DNA from: an uncultured Rivularia sp.
GTDB taxonomy: Bacteria; Cyanobacteriota; Cyanobacteriia; Cyanobacteriales; Nostocaceae
Direction: 5' to 3'
Length of the DNA stretch: 64,000 bases
Assembly (NCBI GenBank): GCA_963665115.1
Contig: OY762007.1
Location: forward strand, 2,304,001 to 2,368,000
The number at the start of each line of letters is the position of its first letter. Position 1 is the first letter of the stretch. This document shows positions 17,320-32,052 of this stretch, piece by piece. The translations under genes and the position numbers were made by a program. The notes under the pieces are model-generated. The model was not told the origin of the DNA. It saw nothing but the letters and a program-made list of their open reading frames with translations, and did not search any database.

Positions 17320-17391
17320 TCCTCAGTAGCTCAGTGGTAGAGCGGTCGGCTGTTAACCGATTGGTCGCAAGTTCGAATCTTGCCTGGGGAG
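17320..17391 (+). tRNA. trnN: tRNA-Asn(GTT)
   Basis: Cloverleaf with TAGCTCAGTGGTAGAGC, anticodon loop CTGTTAA, GTTCGAATC. Confidence 0.97.
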
Positions 17392-23002: not shown

Positions 23003-25683
23003 AGAAAGTGGGGAATAGGGAGTAGGGAGTAGGGAGTAAGGAGTGGGAAGTAAGGAACAAAAAAGGAGAAGGACATAATATGTTGTCAATTATTAGAAGT
23101 CAAAGTTTTTACAATCGATTGGGTTGGATAATGCTGACGGGTATGCTTTTTATTTCACAAAAAGAGCCTGTATTTGCTCAAGTTAAACCAGACAGTAGTT
23201 TGCCATCGAATTCCCAGATAAATCAACAAGGAAATATTTACAATATCACTGGTGGAACTCGATCGGGAAACAATCTTTTTCACAGCTTTGAAAAGTTTGG
23301 AATTCCGTCGGGTGGTGAAGCTTATTTCAATAATCCAGTTGAGATTCAAAATATTATTAATCGAGTTACGGGTAAGTCAATATCAGAGATTAATGGTTTA
23401 ATTCGTGCTAACGGTACTGCTAATTTATTTTTAATTAATCCTAACGGCATTGTATTGGGTGAAAATGCCAAACTTGATATTGGTGGTTCTTTTATAGGCA
23501 GTACGGCTGATAGTTTTAAATTTAAGAATGGTAAGGAATTTAGTGCAATAAATCCTGAAGATAAGCCGCTGTTGAGCGTAAATGTGCCTTTGGGTTTGCA
23601 GTATGGGAAGAATCCTGGAAATATTGAAATTAAAGGTAAAGGTGATACGCAAAGAAACACACGAGAAGTATTTGAGCCAAAATCCGGCTTGCAAGTTCCT
23701 GTTAATAATACGCTAGCTTTGCTCGGTGGTGATGTTTTACTTGAAGGTGCGACGTTAAAAGCTAGTGGCGGAAGAATTGAATTAACTAGCCTCACAGGAG
23801 AAGGTTTAGTTAGTGTTTTACCTGTGGAAAAAGGTTTCAAATTCGGTTTTGAGAAATTGGATAATTTTGGGAAAATTGAACTATCTCGAAATACGGCAGT
23901 TGATGCTAATGGAAATGGCGCAGGTGATGTGTGGGTGACGGGTAAAAATGTCACTCTTGCAGATAGTTTCTGTAATTTCATCAACTCAAACTGGTACTGA
24001 AAAAGGTATGGGTATCGTAGTTAATGCCACCGAAAAGTTATATATCAATGGTATAAATGATACTTTCATGACTAGCGGTTTATACGCTAATAACGTTAGT
24101 GGAAATGCAATAATAGAAACGGGCAATATAGCGGTTAATACTCAGCAGTTAATAGTCCGAGATGGAGCTACCATTGCTACTAATACTTACAGTGATGGTA
24201 AAGGCGGAAATATCAATATTAAAGCGTCGAATTTGAGAATTGAAAATGGGGCTGTTGTTAGCGCGATCGTCAAGAGTTCTGGTAATGGCGGAAATATAGA
24301 TATTAATTCAGCACAGGTGCAAGTTATTGGAGTTGGAAATAATAATAATTTTAGTGAATTAAGTGTTTCTGCAAAGGAAAATTCAACAGGAAATACAGGA
24401 AATTTGAAGATTAACACTAATAATTTGCAGGTTGAAGATGGCGCATCTATCATAACTGCTACATTTGGTGAAGGCAATGGTGGAGATATGACAATTAATG
24501 CTACTTCTAAAATAGAATTGACTGGTCAAGGTGGCAACGAAAATGAATTTCCTAGTGCCTTATTTATTGTTGCAGAAAAACCTTCAACGGGAGATTCTGG
24601 TTCTTTAACTATTAATACAAAACAAATGCTTGTACAGAATGGAGCATTTGTTAGTGTTAGTAATAATGCTTCAGGCGGTGCAGGAGATTTGAAGATTACT
24701 ACTGATAATTTAATAATAAAAGATAATGCTCGTTTTTTTACAGGTAGAGTTAGTGAGGGTAAAGCAATCGGAGACTTAAGTATTAAAACTAATCATTTGC
24801 TTGTTGCAGGTGGCTCAACTGTAAAAGCTGGTACATCTGGTGAAGGTGGAAATTTGAATATTGATGCTCAATATGTACAAGTTATTGGTACGGGCAACGA
24901 TGGTAATACTCCTAGCTCTTTAACCTTATCGGCATCGCTAGGAAATAAGGGGAGTATAAATCTTAACGCTAAACGATTGCTAATTAAAGACGGAGCATCA
25001 GTGTCTGCTGGTACATCTAATGCAGGTGATGGAGGAAATTTGATTATCAATGCTCAGGATGTGCAAATCGTTGGAAAAGGCGGTAACGATCCTAAAAATA
25101 AAAATTTGCCATATCCGAGTGGTATATTTGTTCCAACAGAAGAGTTTGCAACCGGGGATGCAGGCAATTTGATTATTAATGCTAAACGAATGCTCGTACA
25201 AGATGGAGCATTTGTTAGTAGTGCTAGTAATGGTAGAGGCAATGGAGGAGATTTAATTATTAATGCCTCTCGCTTACAAGTGCAAGATGAGTCATCTGTA
25301 ATTTCTGGAACAAAGCGTAAAGGTACGGGTGGAAATTTAAAGATTACTGCTAATAGCGTGCTAGTTGAAGATGGAGCAAAAGTTAATGCTGGTACATCTG
25401 GTACGGGTAATGCAGGAAATTTGAATATTAATTCCGATACTATACGAGTTATAGATAAAGCTCAAGTTGCTGTAGAAAGTACGGGAACGGGAAATGCAGG
25501 TATCTTAACATTAGATGCTCGTTCTATCAGTTTAGATCGCAAAGCTTCACTTAATGCTAGTACGCAAAGTGCAGATTCTAATAATGAACAGGCAACAATT
25601 ATTATTAATAACGCACGGGATTTAATTCGTATCCGCTCAAAAAAATGGGGTAAAGGTACACCTTGCGTCGTAGAATATGAAGC

Positions 25684-27372
25684 ATGACGCAAAAACGATC
25701 ATCTAAAAAATTAGTCACAGCATTATTGCAATCAATCGACCCAAAACAGATTGCAGACGAGGACGTGCGTCAAACGGTAGAAGTATTACTCAACTTAATA
25801 GAACAGCTAAATGTAAAAATCAAAGAATTAGAAGAAGAAAATCAAAAACTACGTGATGAAAACAACCGCTTAAAAGGTGAACAAGGTAAACCAGACATCA
25901 AAGCGAATAAAAACAAAGGGTTTAAGAAAAACTATTCATCAGAAAAAGAACGAAAAATAGCAAAAGAACACAGTAAAGCAAGTAAAAACGAGTCTATCAA
26001 GATAAACCGAGAAGAGATTGTAGTTTACCCACAAGAACAATTACCAGCAGACGCACAGTTCAAGGGTTATGAGGAAGTAGTAGTCCAAGACATTTTACTT
26101 AAGCCAGATAACATACTGTTCCGCAAGCAAAAATACTACTCACCAGAAACAGGAAAAACTTATTTAGCGGAACTACCAACAGGTTACGAAGGTGAATTTG
26201 GTCCAGGAGTAAAAGCTTTGGTCATGAGTCTATATTATGGTGGAAACATGACCCAAGGGAAGTTATTAGAATTTTTAGAAGATATTGGTATCTCGATTAG
26301 TGCAGGAACAATATCAAATTTATTAATTAAAAACCAAGAATATTTTGAAGCTGAATACGAAGAAGTATACAAGGAAGGGTTAGCCAGCAGTCCTTGGCAA
26401 CACTTTGACCAAACAGGTGCGCGTGTTGCAGGAGTGAACCATACAACAAATGTGATTTGTAACCCCTTGTACACAATTTACCAAACAACGCGATACAAAG
26501 ACCGTTTGACTGTATTAAAAGTATTTCAAAACACAACCGAACTCTCCTTTGTTCTCAACGAGATGACCTATGAACTTTTGGAGACTTTTAAAGTTCCAAT
26601 TAAGTGGGTTAATAAACTAAAATTACTATCTCAACAGAAGGCTTTTACCGAAACTGAGTTTAATTTTTTGATTGGTGAGTACTTAAGTAGACTTGGTTCT
26701 CAACACCGTTCTCGCATATATGAATCGGCAGCAATTGCTTTTTATCATCAGCAATCAACTGTACCAGTAATTACAACTCTAGTATGCGATGATGCTCCGC
26801 AGTTCAAGTTAATAACATCGGATTTGGCTCTTTGTTGGGTGCATGAAGGACGACATTATAAGAAATTAAGTCCGCTTATACCTTGCCATCAAAAACTTTT
26901 AGATAATTTTCTAGAAAGATTCTGGGAATATTACAGAAAATTATTATCTTATCGAGATTCTCCAAGTTGGGATAAAGCTCACGAACTAGAAATGGAATTT
27001 TGGACACTTTTTACAGAAAAAAGTGGTTATCAACAGTTAGATGAGCGAAAACGATTAACTACTTTGAAAGTAAACGAGTTGCTTCTCGTGTTGGAGCATC
27101 CAGAATTACTATTGCATAACAACCCTGCCGAATTAGCTGCTAGGACTATGGTACAACGACGTAACATCAGTTACGCAACCCAGACAAAACAAGGCACAAA
27201 AGCGTGGGATGTTTTTATGTCCCTTGTTGACACTACTCGTAAGTTGGGTATCAGTTTTTATGAGTATATGCGTGACCGCATTTCTCAAGTTGAAAATATT
27301 CCATCTTTGGGGACAATTATTCGGAAGAAATCTTCTTCTAATTCCTATGGTTGGTCATGGATGCCTCAATAA
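25684..27372 (+). CDS. IS66-family DDE transposase
   Basis: N-terminal coiled coil; HFDQTG, VCDDA, CWVHEGRH, HNNPAELAAR. Confidence 0.88.
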   Translation: MTQKRSSKKLVTALLQSIDPKQIADEDVRQTVEVLLNLIEQLNVKIKELEEENQKLRDENNRLKGEQGKPDIKANKNKGFKKNYSSEKERKIAKEHSKASKNESIKINREEIVVYPQEQLPADAQFKGYEEVVVQDILLKPDNILFRKQKYYSPETGKTYLAELPTGYEGEFGPGVKALVMSLYYGGNMTQGKLLEFLEDIGISISAGTISNLLIKNQEYFEAEYEEVYKEGLASSPWQHFDQTGARVAGVNHTTNVICNPLYTIYQTTRYKDRLTVLKVFQNTTELSFVLNEMTYELLETFKVPIKWVNKLKLLSQQKAFTETEFNFLIGEYLSRLGSQHRSRIYESAAIAFYHQQSTVPVITTLVCDDAPQFKLITSDLALCWVHEGRHYKKLSPLIPCHQKLLDNFLERFWEYYRKLLSYRDSPSWDKAHELEMEFWTLFTEKSGYQQLDERKRLTTLKVNELLLVLEHPELLLHNNPAELAARTMVQRRNISYATQTKQGTKAWDVFMSLVDTTRKLGISFYEYMRDRISQVENIPSLGTIIRKKSSSNSYGWSWMPQ

Positions 27373-27583
27373 CACCCCTGTATATTAAGACTGTGCTAAA
27401 CCCTCATATCCTTGGTTGTAGAATACTGTAAAGTGCATGGATTAACCACATCTATTTCTTCATAGTTTTTATAAGCGATTGAAACTTTTTTAGTTACTTT
27501 GATAGCATATTTACAATTTACCTTATTTGCAACTTCCGCTATTAATCAATTTCTTGATTTTGATTATTTTTATTTATTTGTTG

Positions 27584-27743
27584 CTCTCACGAGAGATCCA
27601 GCAACTGGGGAAGATTTGGCGGCGACAGCGGAGTGCCAGGTGGGGGCACGATTATTTTCTGTGCCTATGTAAAATCTATCTGCCCCTACCTGGTACCGTC
27701 AAATCAGCGTAGCGGTTCCCCAGTTGCGCCGCTGCTTTTTTTT
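27584..27743 (+). ncRNA. Candidate structured RNA in IS right end
   Basis: Three nested helices (12, 10 and 15 bp) with G-U pairs only on the + strand, followed by T8. Confidence 0.5.
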
Positions 27744-28563
27744 ATCGTAGTTGACATTCAAGACAGCCGATACCCCGAAATTTTGAGGGGATACTTTAAT
27801 TCTACGTCGTGGTAGCAATATAACAACCAACGCCAAAGGTGAAAATGTCCGAGGTGGAAATATTAATATTGATAGCGAGATCGTAGCTGCCATTCCCGAT
27901 GAAAATAGCGATATTAGCGCTAATTCTGAAAACTTCCGTGGTGGTAATATTAAAATAGAAGCTCAAGGTATCTTTGGCACACAATTTAGAGAAAAACCCA
28001 CTTCCGAAAGCCATATTACAGCCACAGGTGCAAGTCAAGATTTAAGCGGTACCGTAGAAATTGAGACTCCCGATATCAATTCTACTAATGAATTATCAGA
28101 TTTACCCTCCATACCTATAAATAATAAGTTAGCCCAAGGCTGCTATAGTCCTGGTTATGCTCAAAATCAATTTTTTATAGTTGGGCGTGGTGGTTTACCA
28201 CCTTTACCGGAAGATTTCCTAACACCTTCAGCAGTGCGAGTTGACTGGGTAAGCCCTGATAAAAATGGCGAAACCAGTTTATTAAATAGAAATATTGAAG
28301 TCAAAACAACTATAGAAAAACCCAGACGTATTGTAGAAGCTACAGGTTGGATAAAAAACGATAAAGGTGAAATCATATTTACAGCAGATGCACCTGTAGC
28401 TACATCTAATAACTTTATAGAGAAAACGAAAAATTGTGAATTGGGAAGTAGGGAGTAGTGAAAAAACGTGTATGTTTCCCCTAAAAGTCTTGTTTAATTA
28501 ACATTTTGCACCATTGGTGTTAAATCCGAATTCCCGCCTTGAAATCAATTAAGGGAGCATAAT

Positions 28564-31500
28564 ATGCTAATGAATATTAAAAAACCAAGCCGCAATCGAT
28601 TGGGTTGGATAATGCTGACGCTGAGTATGCTTTTTATTTCACACAAAGAAGCAGCTTTTGCTCAAGTTAAACCAGACAGTAGTTTGCCATCGAATTCTCA
28701 AGTCAATCGACAAGGAAATATTTACAATATCACTGGTGGAACTCAATCGGGAAACAATCTTTTTCACAGTTTTGAAAAATTTGGAGTTCCGAATGGTGGT
28801 GAAGCTTATTTTAATAATGCAGTTGAGATTCAAAATATTATTAATCGAGTTACAGGTAAGTCAATATCAGAGATTAATGGTTTAATTCGTGCTAACGGTA
28901 CGGCTAATTTATTTTTGATAAATCCCAACGGTATTGTATTTGGTGAAAATGCCAAGCTTGATATTGGTGGTTCTTTTATAGGCAGTACGGCTGATAGTTT
29001 TAAATTTAATAATGGTAAGGAATTTAGTGCAATAAATCCTCAAGATAAGCCGTTGTTAAGCATAAATGTTCCTTTGGGTTTGCAGTATGGGAAGAATCAA
29101 ACAGGTAATATTACTAATTCAGGTAATCTGAGCGTTAATAATGGTAAAAGTATTACTCTTATTGGCAATAGTTTTGAAAATATAGGAAAAATAAAAACTG
29201 ATGGAGGACAAATATCTATAGCTGCGATCGGAAATGAAGGTTTTGCAACTTTAGGAGAATCTGGAGAATTATTAAATCTGGAATTTCAATCTGAAGATAC
29301 TGTTAATGGCAATGCAAATAATTTTGGAACCGTTATCAATAAAGGTAATATTGATGCTTCAATACAAGCGGGAATAGGTGGTAAAATAATTGTAGTGGGA
29401 GAAAGAATTGGTTTATTAGATAACTCGTTATTCGACGTTTCAGGAAGTGTGGGGGGCGGTGAAGTAAAAGTTGGAAATAATAATACAATTGCAGCTTATA
29501 TTGACCCAAAAGCATCTATAAAAGCTGATGCATTAATTGCAGGAAACGGCGGTAAAATTACGGTTTCGGCTACAGAATTAACTCGCGTGCATGGAAGTTT
29601 CAGCGCCAAAGGTGGTTTAAACAACGGGAATGGTGGTTTGGTTGAAAATAGGGGAAATGATTTTTTAGATATTACGGGTATATCTGTTGATACCAATGCG
29701 AATAATGGCTTGAATGGTAACTGGTTGCTTAACTCAGGTAATATATTCTTTGGTTCGCGAAACAATATTAATCCTACATTTAACAATAATAATTCTGCAA
29801 TTTTTCAACCAGCTAAAGCGGAGACAGTATTAGATGTTTCCACTATAGAGAAGCAGTTAAGTGCGGGAAATAATATCACAATTACAGCGAGTGAGACAGG
29901 AAGTGAAGTAGGAAATATTACAGCAGATAGAATTGATATTGCAGCACTAAATAATACTCCAGTCAGATTAACGCTTCAAGCCGATAACAATATTACTTTG
30001 TCAAAAGGTAATATCCAATCTACGAATAATCGCTTGGGTATGGTGTTGCAGGCAGATAGCGATAAAAACGGTTCAGGTAATATTAACCTTGGTAACGGAA
30101 GCCCACGAAGTTTTGAAATTGATACAAGTGGTGAAAAATTCACTGCATCCGCATCTGGTTCTATTTCATTTTCTGGTGCTGAGATTAAAAGTAGTAATAC
30201 GGAGGCAAAAGATTCAGAAACAATCGCGATCGCCACAGCAGGTTCTGTTATAGTTGAAAATAGCGGTATTATAAAAAAAGTATTTGCTTCGGGCAACAAT
30301 GGCGATATTTATATCGATGCAGACGCACTTTATCTACAGGGCGGAATTGAAAACAATACCAAAGTTAAGAGTAATGGGAATGCTGGAAGAATAAATATTA
30401 ATGTCAAATCTTTATCGATAACAAAGGGCGCTATAAATAATGTTACTGAAGGTAATGGTAATAGTGGTTCGACAATCATTGAAACAGAAAATTTTTTATT
30501 AAAAGAAGGTATAATTAGAAGCATTACAAAAGGTATTGGAAATGCTGGAGAAATTATTGTAAATTCTAATTCAGTTTCATTAGAAAACGGTAGTTTGTTC
30601 GCGAGAACTGAAGGTAATAGCGACGGTGGGAGTATCTCTGTGAATGCAAAACAGAAGATATTTATTGGAAATCGTGGTGGTTTAAATAGCAACTCTAATG
30701 GGCAAGGTAATGCTGGTAATATAACTGTAAATAGTGGTTCCTTAGTATTAAAAGATGATTCGACAATTACTTCTAATGCAAAAGAATTAAGCTCTCAAGG
30801 AAATGCAGGAAATATAAAAATTAATGCCGATTCTATTTTTTTGCTAGATAGTACGATCGAAGCAATCGCAAATCGTGGAGATGCAGGAGAAGTAATTCTT
30901 AAAGCCGATAACATTACTTTAAAAAATAGTTCTAATATTTCCACAAGTACCATAGATAATTCTATAAGTAATGCTGGGAAGATTGAAGTTATAGCTAAAT
31001 CTATTTTATTCGAGAACGAACCTGAATTTAAAAACAAAGATAACGAACCTAAAATAATTAATAGTTTGGGCAGTGTCACTAATGGCAAAGGTGATGCTGG
31101 GGAAATAACAATAGAAGCAGAAGAGATTATTTTGAAAAATAGAGGAGGAATTGGAATTGATACAAAAAATGAAGGCAATGCCGGTAAACTTACTATTAAT
31201 ACCTCTTTATTACAATTAGAAAACTCGCGAGTGCAAGATAACGCAGGGATAAATAGTAGTTCGAGTGGTTCTGGTAAGGCTGGGGAACTTACTATCAATG
31301 CGGACAGAATATTATTAGATAAAAGCGATATTGAAGCTCAAACTGAATCGGGAGATGGCGGTAATATTATCCTTAACTTGAAAGAACTTCTTCTATTACG
31401 TAATGGTAGCCGAATTTCTACTACGGCAGGCACGGCAGGTGGAGGGGGAAATGGCGGTAATATTGAAATTAATGCCCCTGATGGTTTCGTAGTTGCTATC

Positions 31501-32052
31501 CCGAATGAAAACAGCGATATTACCGCGAATGCTTTTGAAGGTGAAGGTGGTAATATTAAAATCACCGCTTCTGGTATATTCGGTATTCAAATTCGAGAAA
31601 ATCTAACTAAAAAAATTAGCGATATCAGTGCGAGTTCCGAGTTAGGTATAGACGGTACCGTTGAAATTAATACTCCCGATCTAAACCCTAATAATGAATT
31701 AGCCGAGTTACCATCTATACCTATTTACAGTCAATTAGCCCAAGGCTGCTATAGTCCAGGTTATGCTCAAAATCAATTTTTTGTAGTTGGGCGCGGTGGT
31801 TTACCGCCTTTACCTGAAGATTATCTTACACCTTCGGCAGTGCGAGTTGACTGGATAAATCCTCAACAAAATAGCAAAAACAATTTGCCTAATACAGATA
31901 TTGAAGTCAAAACAACTACAGAAAAACCCAAACGTATTGTAGAAGCTACGGGATGGATAACCAACGATAAAGGTGAAATTATATTCACAGCAAATGCACC
32001 TGTAGCTACAGCAGATAGTTCTATGCAGCAAGCTCAAAACTGTGAATTTTAA
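28564..32052 (+). CDS. Filamentous-haemagglutinin (TpsA-like) protein 2, intact
   Basis: Signal peptide, TPS domain, GNAGxIxI beta-helix-type repeats, C-terminal GRGGLP..EATGW domain. Confidence 0.92.

Follow-up and report, generated by a model that had tools for sequence, protein, structure and literature searches.

In rolling-circle plasmids the rep coding strand is the leading, displaced strand. Insertion sequences (ISs) of the DDE and IS110 types are thought of as double-strand elements; the IS110/IS1111 elements use bridge or seek RNAs, and guide RNAs of the IS1111 type sit downstream of the transposase. Single-strand origins (sso) are functional only on the leading strand (PMC5703833, extract). 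The ssiA/ssiB of RSF1010 are a 40-nt site used by the plasmid primase RepB'. Mini-hairpins of the GCGNAGC type are found at the G4 origin and in RSF1010 ssiA, and GCGNAGC/GCGNNAGC hairpins have a far higher stability as DNA than as RNA and bind SSB poorly (PMC13037366, extract). For conjugative transfer, the relaxase gene is usually located in the region that is transferred last (PMC11541004, extract), and for structured plasmid motifs it has been pointed out that covariation alone hardly separates RNA from single-stranded DNA (ssDNA) (PMC5737381, extract).

The locus compared here with these systems lies in a window of 64,000 nt (the whole stretch of DNA that was analysed) from an uncultured Rivularia sp. 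It harbors a 2166-bp IS66-family element (25629-27794, + strand), present in 10 identical copies in the genome, whose single open reading frame encodes a 562-aa transposase (25684-27372, +) matching PF03050, the DDE_Tnp_IS66 domain of the IS66 family; separate accessory ORFs of at least 80 aa are absent. An imperfect left terminal inverted repeat of about 24 bp (25629-25652), a right one (27771-27794) and an 8-bp target duplication (25621-25628 and 27795-27802) delimit the element, and such a duplication flanks all 10 identical copies in the 8.69-Mb genome. Domain, terminal repeats and duplication place the element within IS66, as had been proposed from the sequence alone. It interrupts a host gene for a Gly/Asn-rich repeat protein, a paralogue of the ORF at 28564, whose 5' part spans 23948-25628 (+) and whose 3' part spans 27795-28458 (+; the frame is open over the 100 codons translated and the stop was read from the sequence); the gene has no Pfam match, and we take its product to be haemagglutinin-like. 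Tandem paralogous Gly/Asn-rich repeat genes occupy 23080-24000 and 28564-32052 of the window, their 5' ends being 92% identical over 300 nt, and the first of them is split near 23950-24000 and then again by the IS66. The sole Rfam match of the window is a tRNA gene at 17320-17391.

Behind the transposase stop the element continues for 422 bp (about 420 bp in the sequence-only reading), an AT-rich stretch followed by a GC-rich fold as that reading had it, with a GC content of 0.29 before the fold and 0.57 within. The structure in the window is a real hairpin: a rod with two three-way junctions, 134 nt long (27598-27731, +), and likely a single-strand origin. Its three helices pair at the positions first proposed. 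They are P1 (27601-27612 with 27716-27727), P2 (27613-27621 with 27697-27705; first given as 27613-27622 with 27696-27705) and an upper helix P3, which is present as described (27634-27648 with 27681-27695) and is better drawn with the boundaries 27633-27647 and 27682-27696. Exactly three positions are non-Watson-Crick, every one of them a G-T on the + strand, again as first read, and P3 contains a G-T pair that is near-invariant among homologues (76/82). The two linkers do contain AGCGG, but they are not unpaired as had been supposed; they form side arm 1 (27622-27629, a GC-GACA-GC mini-hairpin) and side arm 2 (27707-27713, a GC-GTA-GC mini-hairpin). The apical region (27649-27680) is AT-rich and varies in sequence at similar length, a weakly conserved pyrimidine-rich leader precedes the rod on its 5' side (27578-27597, from column counts in 124 homologues), and the CCGCT and T run reported downstream of the rod are present in the window. 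Folded as RNA, the + strand reaches -70.6 kcal/mol (z -5.20), with none of 200 shuffles as good, and the reverse strand gives a z of -3.35.

A sister IS66 in the same genome (G000:1000004-1001778), 86% identical, runs from its stop codon directly into the terminal repeat and lacks both the module and the tail that surrounds it here (27373-27770, +). The acquired tail ends in a relic of an IS110-family right end (27751-27770, +) and begins with a stretch (27373-27390, +) that, over about 12 nt judged by eye, weakly resembles the junction at the left of the L053 IS110. Cyanobacterial IS110s with this right end carry the same module 80-250 nt past the transposase. We infer that the tail is what is left of an IS110 at the inner edge of the IS66 right repeat; in the simplest history the IS110 would have inserted there first and then lost its interior. 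The earlier caveat that the structure might be an unrelated nested element was thus partly true, given that the tail ends in the IS110 relic. Absence from related ISs, a further check put forward at the time, holds for the sister IS66, while the IS66 relatives of the window type keep the module at 92-95% identity. Elsewhere in this genome, a damaged module without arm 1 (G000:C1:8679313-8679441) is followed by an IS110 right end, and two half modules (G000:C1 7274103-7274158 and 7213667-7213721) each have an IS110 right end directly after them.

The module belongs to a conserved family that filamentous cyanobacteria carry on plasmids and in the ends of several kinds of IS. By blastn the region was present in 15 of 61 relatives, and a covariance model built from 17 seed sequences matched in 55 of 151 genomes from the family. 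In the phylum sample, where 22 candidates were scored in each genome, it matched in none of 133 genomes of other families. With a strict pattern there were 18 GTDB matches, all cyanobacterial (with titles naming Nostoc, Calothrix, Aulosira, Scytonema and other cyanobacteria), 19 metagenome matches and no exact match in IMG/VR; the INPHARED phage collection yielded merely two 32-nt chance matches. The Rfam/Infernal search that had been suggested was run in gathering and E-value modes and produced chance miRNA and CRISPR matches, none above the gathering threshold, so that no Rfam family matches the module. Compensated changes were seen at 18 of the 40 pairs in the 17-sequence seed and at 37 of 40 in a 95-row alignment that was fitted to the model and leans toward it, 13 of its rows being reverse-strand echoes; its score was 0.489 as against 0.117 at most for slid controls. 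These counts agree with the earlier reading of a highly structured module within the IS, which proves to be conserved, strand-specific and covarying. Its invariant features are the two side arms, the one G-T pair and the base of P3. Several copies have suffered damage: P2 is impaired in L003, L004 and L007, a decayed module (L028:3136-3272, at about 6129140 of G000:C1) lies within an apparent integrated element carrying an AAA_24 gene. In L022, L228 and L236 short palindromic repeats have been inserted exactly at side arm 1, with a GNA arm restored beside the insertion.

Loops and terminators were counted in 124 distinct homologues, 70 of them at less than 90% similarity. The 248 side arms comprise 186 GNA triloops, with any base in the middle (GAA, GCA, GTA and GGA are all seen), 30 tetraloops and 32 arms with neither, and the outer pair of the arm swaps from G-C to A-T in some homologues. 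Based on this loop pattern and on the published chemistry of such hairpins, the module probably folds as single-stranded DNA, its side arms being GNA/GNNA mini-hairpins. We favor ssDNA over RNA because of the loop spectrum and because of a strand rule observed on plasmids.

For this rule, 107 matches, drawn from the 150 model matches listed out of 169 together with six blastn matches, were tabulated against the relaxases of 46 genomes; G000 and G098 were excluded, as were several sets of multi-copy ISs. Among the matches listed, 40 modules lie within 200 kb of a MOBP or MOBV relaxase and 38 of these are on the strand opposite to it, or 36 of 38 once two IS-borne modules (G009:C30 and G105:C4) are removed. 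In a second set of 64 further loci, 12 have relaxase-fusion or coupling-protein matches and 11 of the 12 modules are again opposite, where several of these match the C-terminal toprim part alone and L266/L268 resemble L012. The exceptions are both on G064:C309 in the first set, plus L129. The distance between module and relaxase ranges from 54 nt to 105 kb on either side of the gene; nine plasmids have the module beginning 8-17 nt beyond the stop of the relaxase gene, and in a Calothrix plasmid it is located between mobC and the relaxase. A naive p of 1.5e-9 overstates the rule, and we trust no p-value for it because the plasmids are kin. Since the relaxase usually enters last, the strand opposite to it would be the transferred strand, and the module would thus lie on the transferred strand of MOBP/MOBV plasmids, with transferred and displaced strands assigned from general rules. 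A pMV158-like nick hairpin was recognized by eye on the module strand in six of eight MOBV loci; pMV158 itself may nick its coding strand. A MOBP nick motif was inconsistent in strand across loci, and in tests for MOBF and MOBQ none of the matches listed shared a contig with the 15 TrwC or six MobA/MobL places.

On rolling-circle plasmids the module is on the rep coding strand in all four Rep_1 contexts. Two of the carriers are complete circles, L275 (4272 bp, with a 123-bp terminal repeat) and L163 (4551 bp, with a 141-bp repeat), each having one module 5' of rep and carrying Rep_1 and two to four small genes, with no relaxase or primase match. Three other small Rep_1 contigs are without the module, and L097 alone shows a dso motif, which is on the module strand. 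A full-length Rep_1 gene that is seemingly chromosomal is also present in many genomes of the family, about one each (L166-L184). The strand placement on plasmids is the behavior of a single-strand origin (sso/ssi). We conclude that the module is likely such an origin, standing in the window IS66 alongside the right-end relic of an IS110.

The ISs that carry the module do so in one orientation. In every IS lineage checked it lies inside the terminal repeats with its 3' side toward the nearer end, that is, outward. Right-end carriers are IS110, the IS66 group of the window, a second IS66 group and an IS50-like IS4; left-end carriers are an IS4 group, ISAs1 (22 matches in G098), ISL3 and IS1634, and in G000 two copies each of ISL3 and IS1634 hold a diverged version. 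The captures are nested and not independent, because ISAs1, IS1634 and the window IS66 hold relics of other IS ends beside the module: ISAs1 captured it twice, in one case with an IS110 end and in the other with an IS66 end, and IS1634 captured it with an ISL3 end. Transposase fragments converge on plasmid-type modules at L055, L094 and L150. A gene-less element of about 290 bp with IS66-type repeats and the module (L209:3890-4165) is a candidate MITE.

This nesting also feeds the most viable alternative, according to which the module is a single-strand origin on plasmids, yet a passenger in the window IS66, an IS110 derivative that is copied along without benefit. The relic at 27751-27770 with its possible left tip fits this explanation, nested captures could hand down one orientation, and the 10 identical IS66 copies reveal a recent burst and nothing more. 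The module is moreover dispensable, being missing from the sister IS66, from the IS110 copies L112 and L114 and from a distant ISL3 (L255). Against a passenger, the module is 92-95% identical in the IS66 relatives of the window type, as compared with 82-86% for the element. Within IS110, 11 compensated pairs occur in 23 copies and stem identity is 85% versus 55% in the spacer; ISL3 likewise shows compensated pairs, with 85% versus 58%. Taken together, these comparisons suggest that the module is under selection inside ISs. The outward orientation in each lineage checked also speaks against a passenger, as do three ISL3 loci whose right end has gained a further outward copy, in the form of an added inverted left end. 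In the ISL3 elements L093:4199-6097, L228 and L246 an added inverted left end lies beyond the original right repeat, and in L093 and L228 this gives outward modules on both strands. Finally, one IS110 right end (L106:2600-2830, G067:C329) fills the same slot with an unrelated rod of about 150 nt bearing the same GC-GTA-GC side arm, which is possibly a second sso family and has no match among the compiled loci or in G000. On balance we find the passenger explanation a real but doubtful one.

If the module is a single-strand origin, its strand would fold into the rod with two three-way junctions once single-stranded, and the rod would be where an enzyme of the host primes the missing strand. The enzyme is taken to be host-encoded because the two complete carrier plasmids show just Rep_1 and two to four small genes; the primer might be made by DnaG with a primosome or by RNA polymerase. 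Synthesis would proceed toward the 5' end of the template, which in every IS means inward across the transposase gene. Were the + strand to enter a cell in single-stranded form, whether through conjugation or transformation, the primer would be extended leftward over the transposase gene, and the IS would be made double-stranded early, which would explain why the module is retained. That the IS benefits from the module after conjugation or transformation is a reading to which we give a little short of an even chance. G000 has dprA and priA matches; those for priA fall in two reading frames (G000:C1:2511148-2512775), which implies either a frameshift or an error of assembly. Priming from the rod would leave about 65 outer nt uncopied, the right repeat included. 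GC skew is flat.

Priming could also be a by-product of a single-stranded promoter resembling Frpo, at which RNA polymerase would give early transcription of the gene on the 5' side, which is the transposase at IS left ends and the relaxase in some plasmids. Frpo itself performs both the promoter and the priming jobs (PMC7690428, extract), and the adjacent gene has the module strand as its template at the left ends of IS4, ISAs1, ISL3 and IS1634 as well as between mobC and the relaxase. At IS66 and IS110 right ends, however, such transcription would be antisense, and a suitably stranded 5' neighbor exists in just 16 of 36 plasmid cases. The consensus shows no conserved -35/-10, hexamer matches being equal on both strands, and on plasmids the majority of copies are 3' of the relaxase, within what would be the last-transferred region. 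We therefore regard a promoter of this kind as unlikely.

The sequence-only reading had proposed a structured RNA of the IS, whether regulatory, a guide or bridge-type RNA, a switch or a ribozyme. Such an RNA would agree with the strong covariation, with the G-U wobbles and with the position of the module downstream of IS110 transposases, as in IS1111-type guide RNAs, and a metatranscriptome contig of a relative spans the module (of five runs, whose contigs were examined, one is recorded as RNA, with a share of 0.06). That contig extends into flanking sequence and so cannot demonstrate a discrete transcript, and the wobbles, being G-T pairs, do not discriminate RNA from ssDNA. GNA triloops predominate and GNRA accounts for just four of the 30 tetraloops, a conserved terminator is absent, Rfam is without a match, and the CCGCT partner of the pseudoknot suggested with AGCGG is kept in only 8 of the 124 distinct homologues. 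Placement also speaks against an RNA: at right ends the module has the sense of the transposase, at left ends it is upstream and in antisense, and in nine plasmids, where it begins 8-17 nt past the relaxase stop, it is on the non-coding strand. An RNA specific to IS66, be it a guide, a switch or a ribozyme, finds no support, the sister IS66 being without the module and most occurrences lying outside IS66. Some IS110s share the same end without the module, and at their left they have a conserved non-coding region that is separate from it; such a region of about 200 nt precedes the IS110 transposases in L034, L035, L038, L039 and L053 and is likely a bridge RNA. These IS110s use short palindromic repeats as targets, inserting at a CT core. 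Altogether we consider an RNA improbable, and covarying 'RNAs' at IS ends may more generally be ssDNA signals. A terminator or alternative terminator insulating the IS end, which the T run after the rod in the window would suit, is highly improbable, as a T5+ run occurs in 27 and CCGCT in 8 of the 124 homologues, a terminator scan calls none at the T run of the window, and termination requires no side arms and no strand rule across the replicon.

With the single-strand origin as the preferred reading, the more surprising part is that at least seven IS lineages carry it in a set orientation and apparently under selection. We tentatively propose, with the balance of probability somewhat against it, that ISs of the DDE and IS110 types repeatedly capture and keep a plasmid single-strand origin at one end or sometimes both, directed outward, so that copies arriving as ssDNA are primed, become double-stranded first and can jump before the incoming DNA is lost. 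If true, this would be a general and unrecognized cis device for the horizontal spread of ISs, as well as the first sso family to be defined in heterocystous cyanobacteria, and it becomes a testable question whether an IS that has entered horizontally gains from priming the second strand itself. For Nostocaceae-type cyanobacteria, a single-strand origin could be useful in shuttle vectors and conjugation, and would give a direct handle on the priming of transferred ssDNA in these organisms. Judging from listings of the open-access literature, there is no description of the motif or of an sso in IS ends, and an sso family carried by insertion sequences is apparently previously undescribed.

Among known systems, the IS110/IS1111 bridge and seek RNAs share with the module a non-coding structure in the IS110 right end. 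The module differs in that it is dispensable in IS110 (L112 and L114 are without it, and L106 has another rod in its place), is common without IS110, and coexists with a separate conserved left non-coding region, and on these grounds we rejected its assignment to them. The ARRPOF, GEBRO and PAGEV motifs, which may act as ssDNA, are likewise covarying plasmid motifs, for which RNA could not be distinguished from ssDNA (PMC5737381, extract); the module, for which Rfam has no match, occurs in other taxa, and its strand relative to rep or relaxase is informative. Like Frpo of F, it is a hairpin on what would be the transferred strand (PMC11541004 and PMC7690428, extracts), but it lacks -35/-10 in its stems, has no consistent gene ahead and lies mostly in the lagging and not the leading region; a stem-formed -35/-10 ahead of a leading-region gene was not found, and it was not assigned to Frpo. 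With the origins of phages G4, St-1 and alpha3, the ssi of phiX174 and the ssiA/ssiB of RSF1010 it shares strand-specific GNA/GNNA mini-hairpins in ssDNA (PMC13037366, PMC5714925 and PMC8567376), although it is far longer than the 40-nt ssiA and no cognate plasmid primase accompanies it on L275 or L163. Membership in the ssoA/ssoU class was rejected, as blastn against 72,556 plasmid records gave one match, a Calothrix plasmid, and no similarity to any classical sso, those of Firmicutes included. In architecture the module is nonetheless similar in size to ssoA, ssoU, ssoT and ssoW as well as ssoL (134 nt as compared with about 160 for ssoA; PMC5703833, extract), and it resembles the sso of rolling-circle plasmids in being a long imperfect palindrome on a single strand, with a flexible position relative to rep, a narrow host range and occurrence on Rep_1 (pC194-family) plasmids (PMC5703833, extract). 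Unlike the classical sso, it has two mini-hairpin side arms, is cyanobacterial, and is common on mobilizable plasmids and at IS ends.
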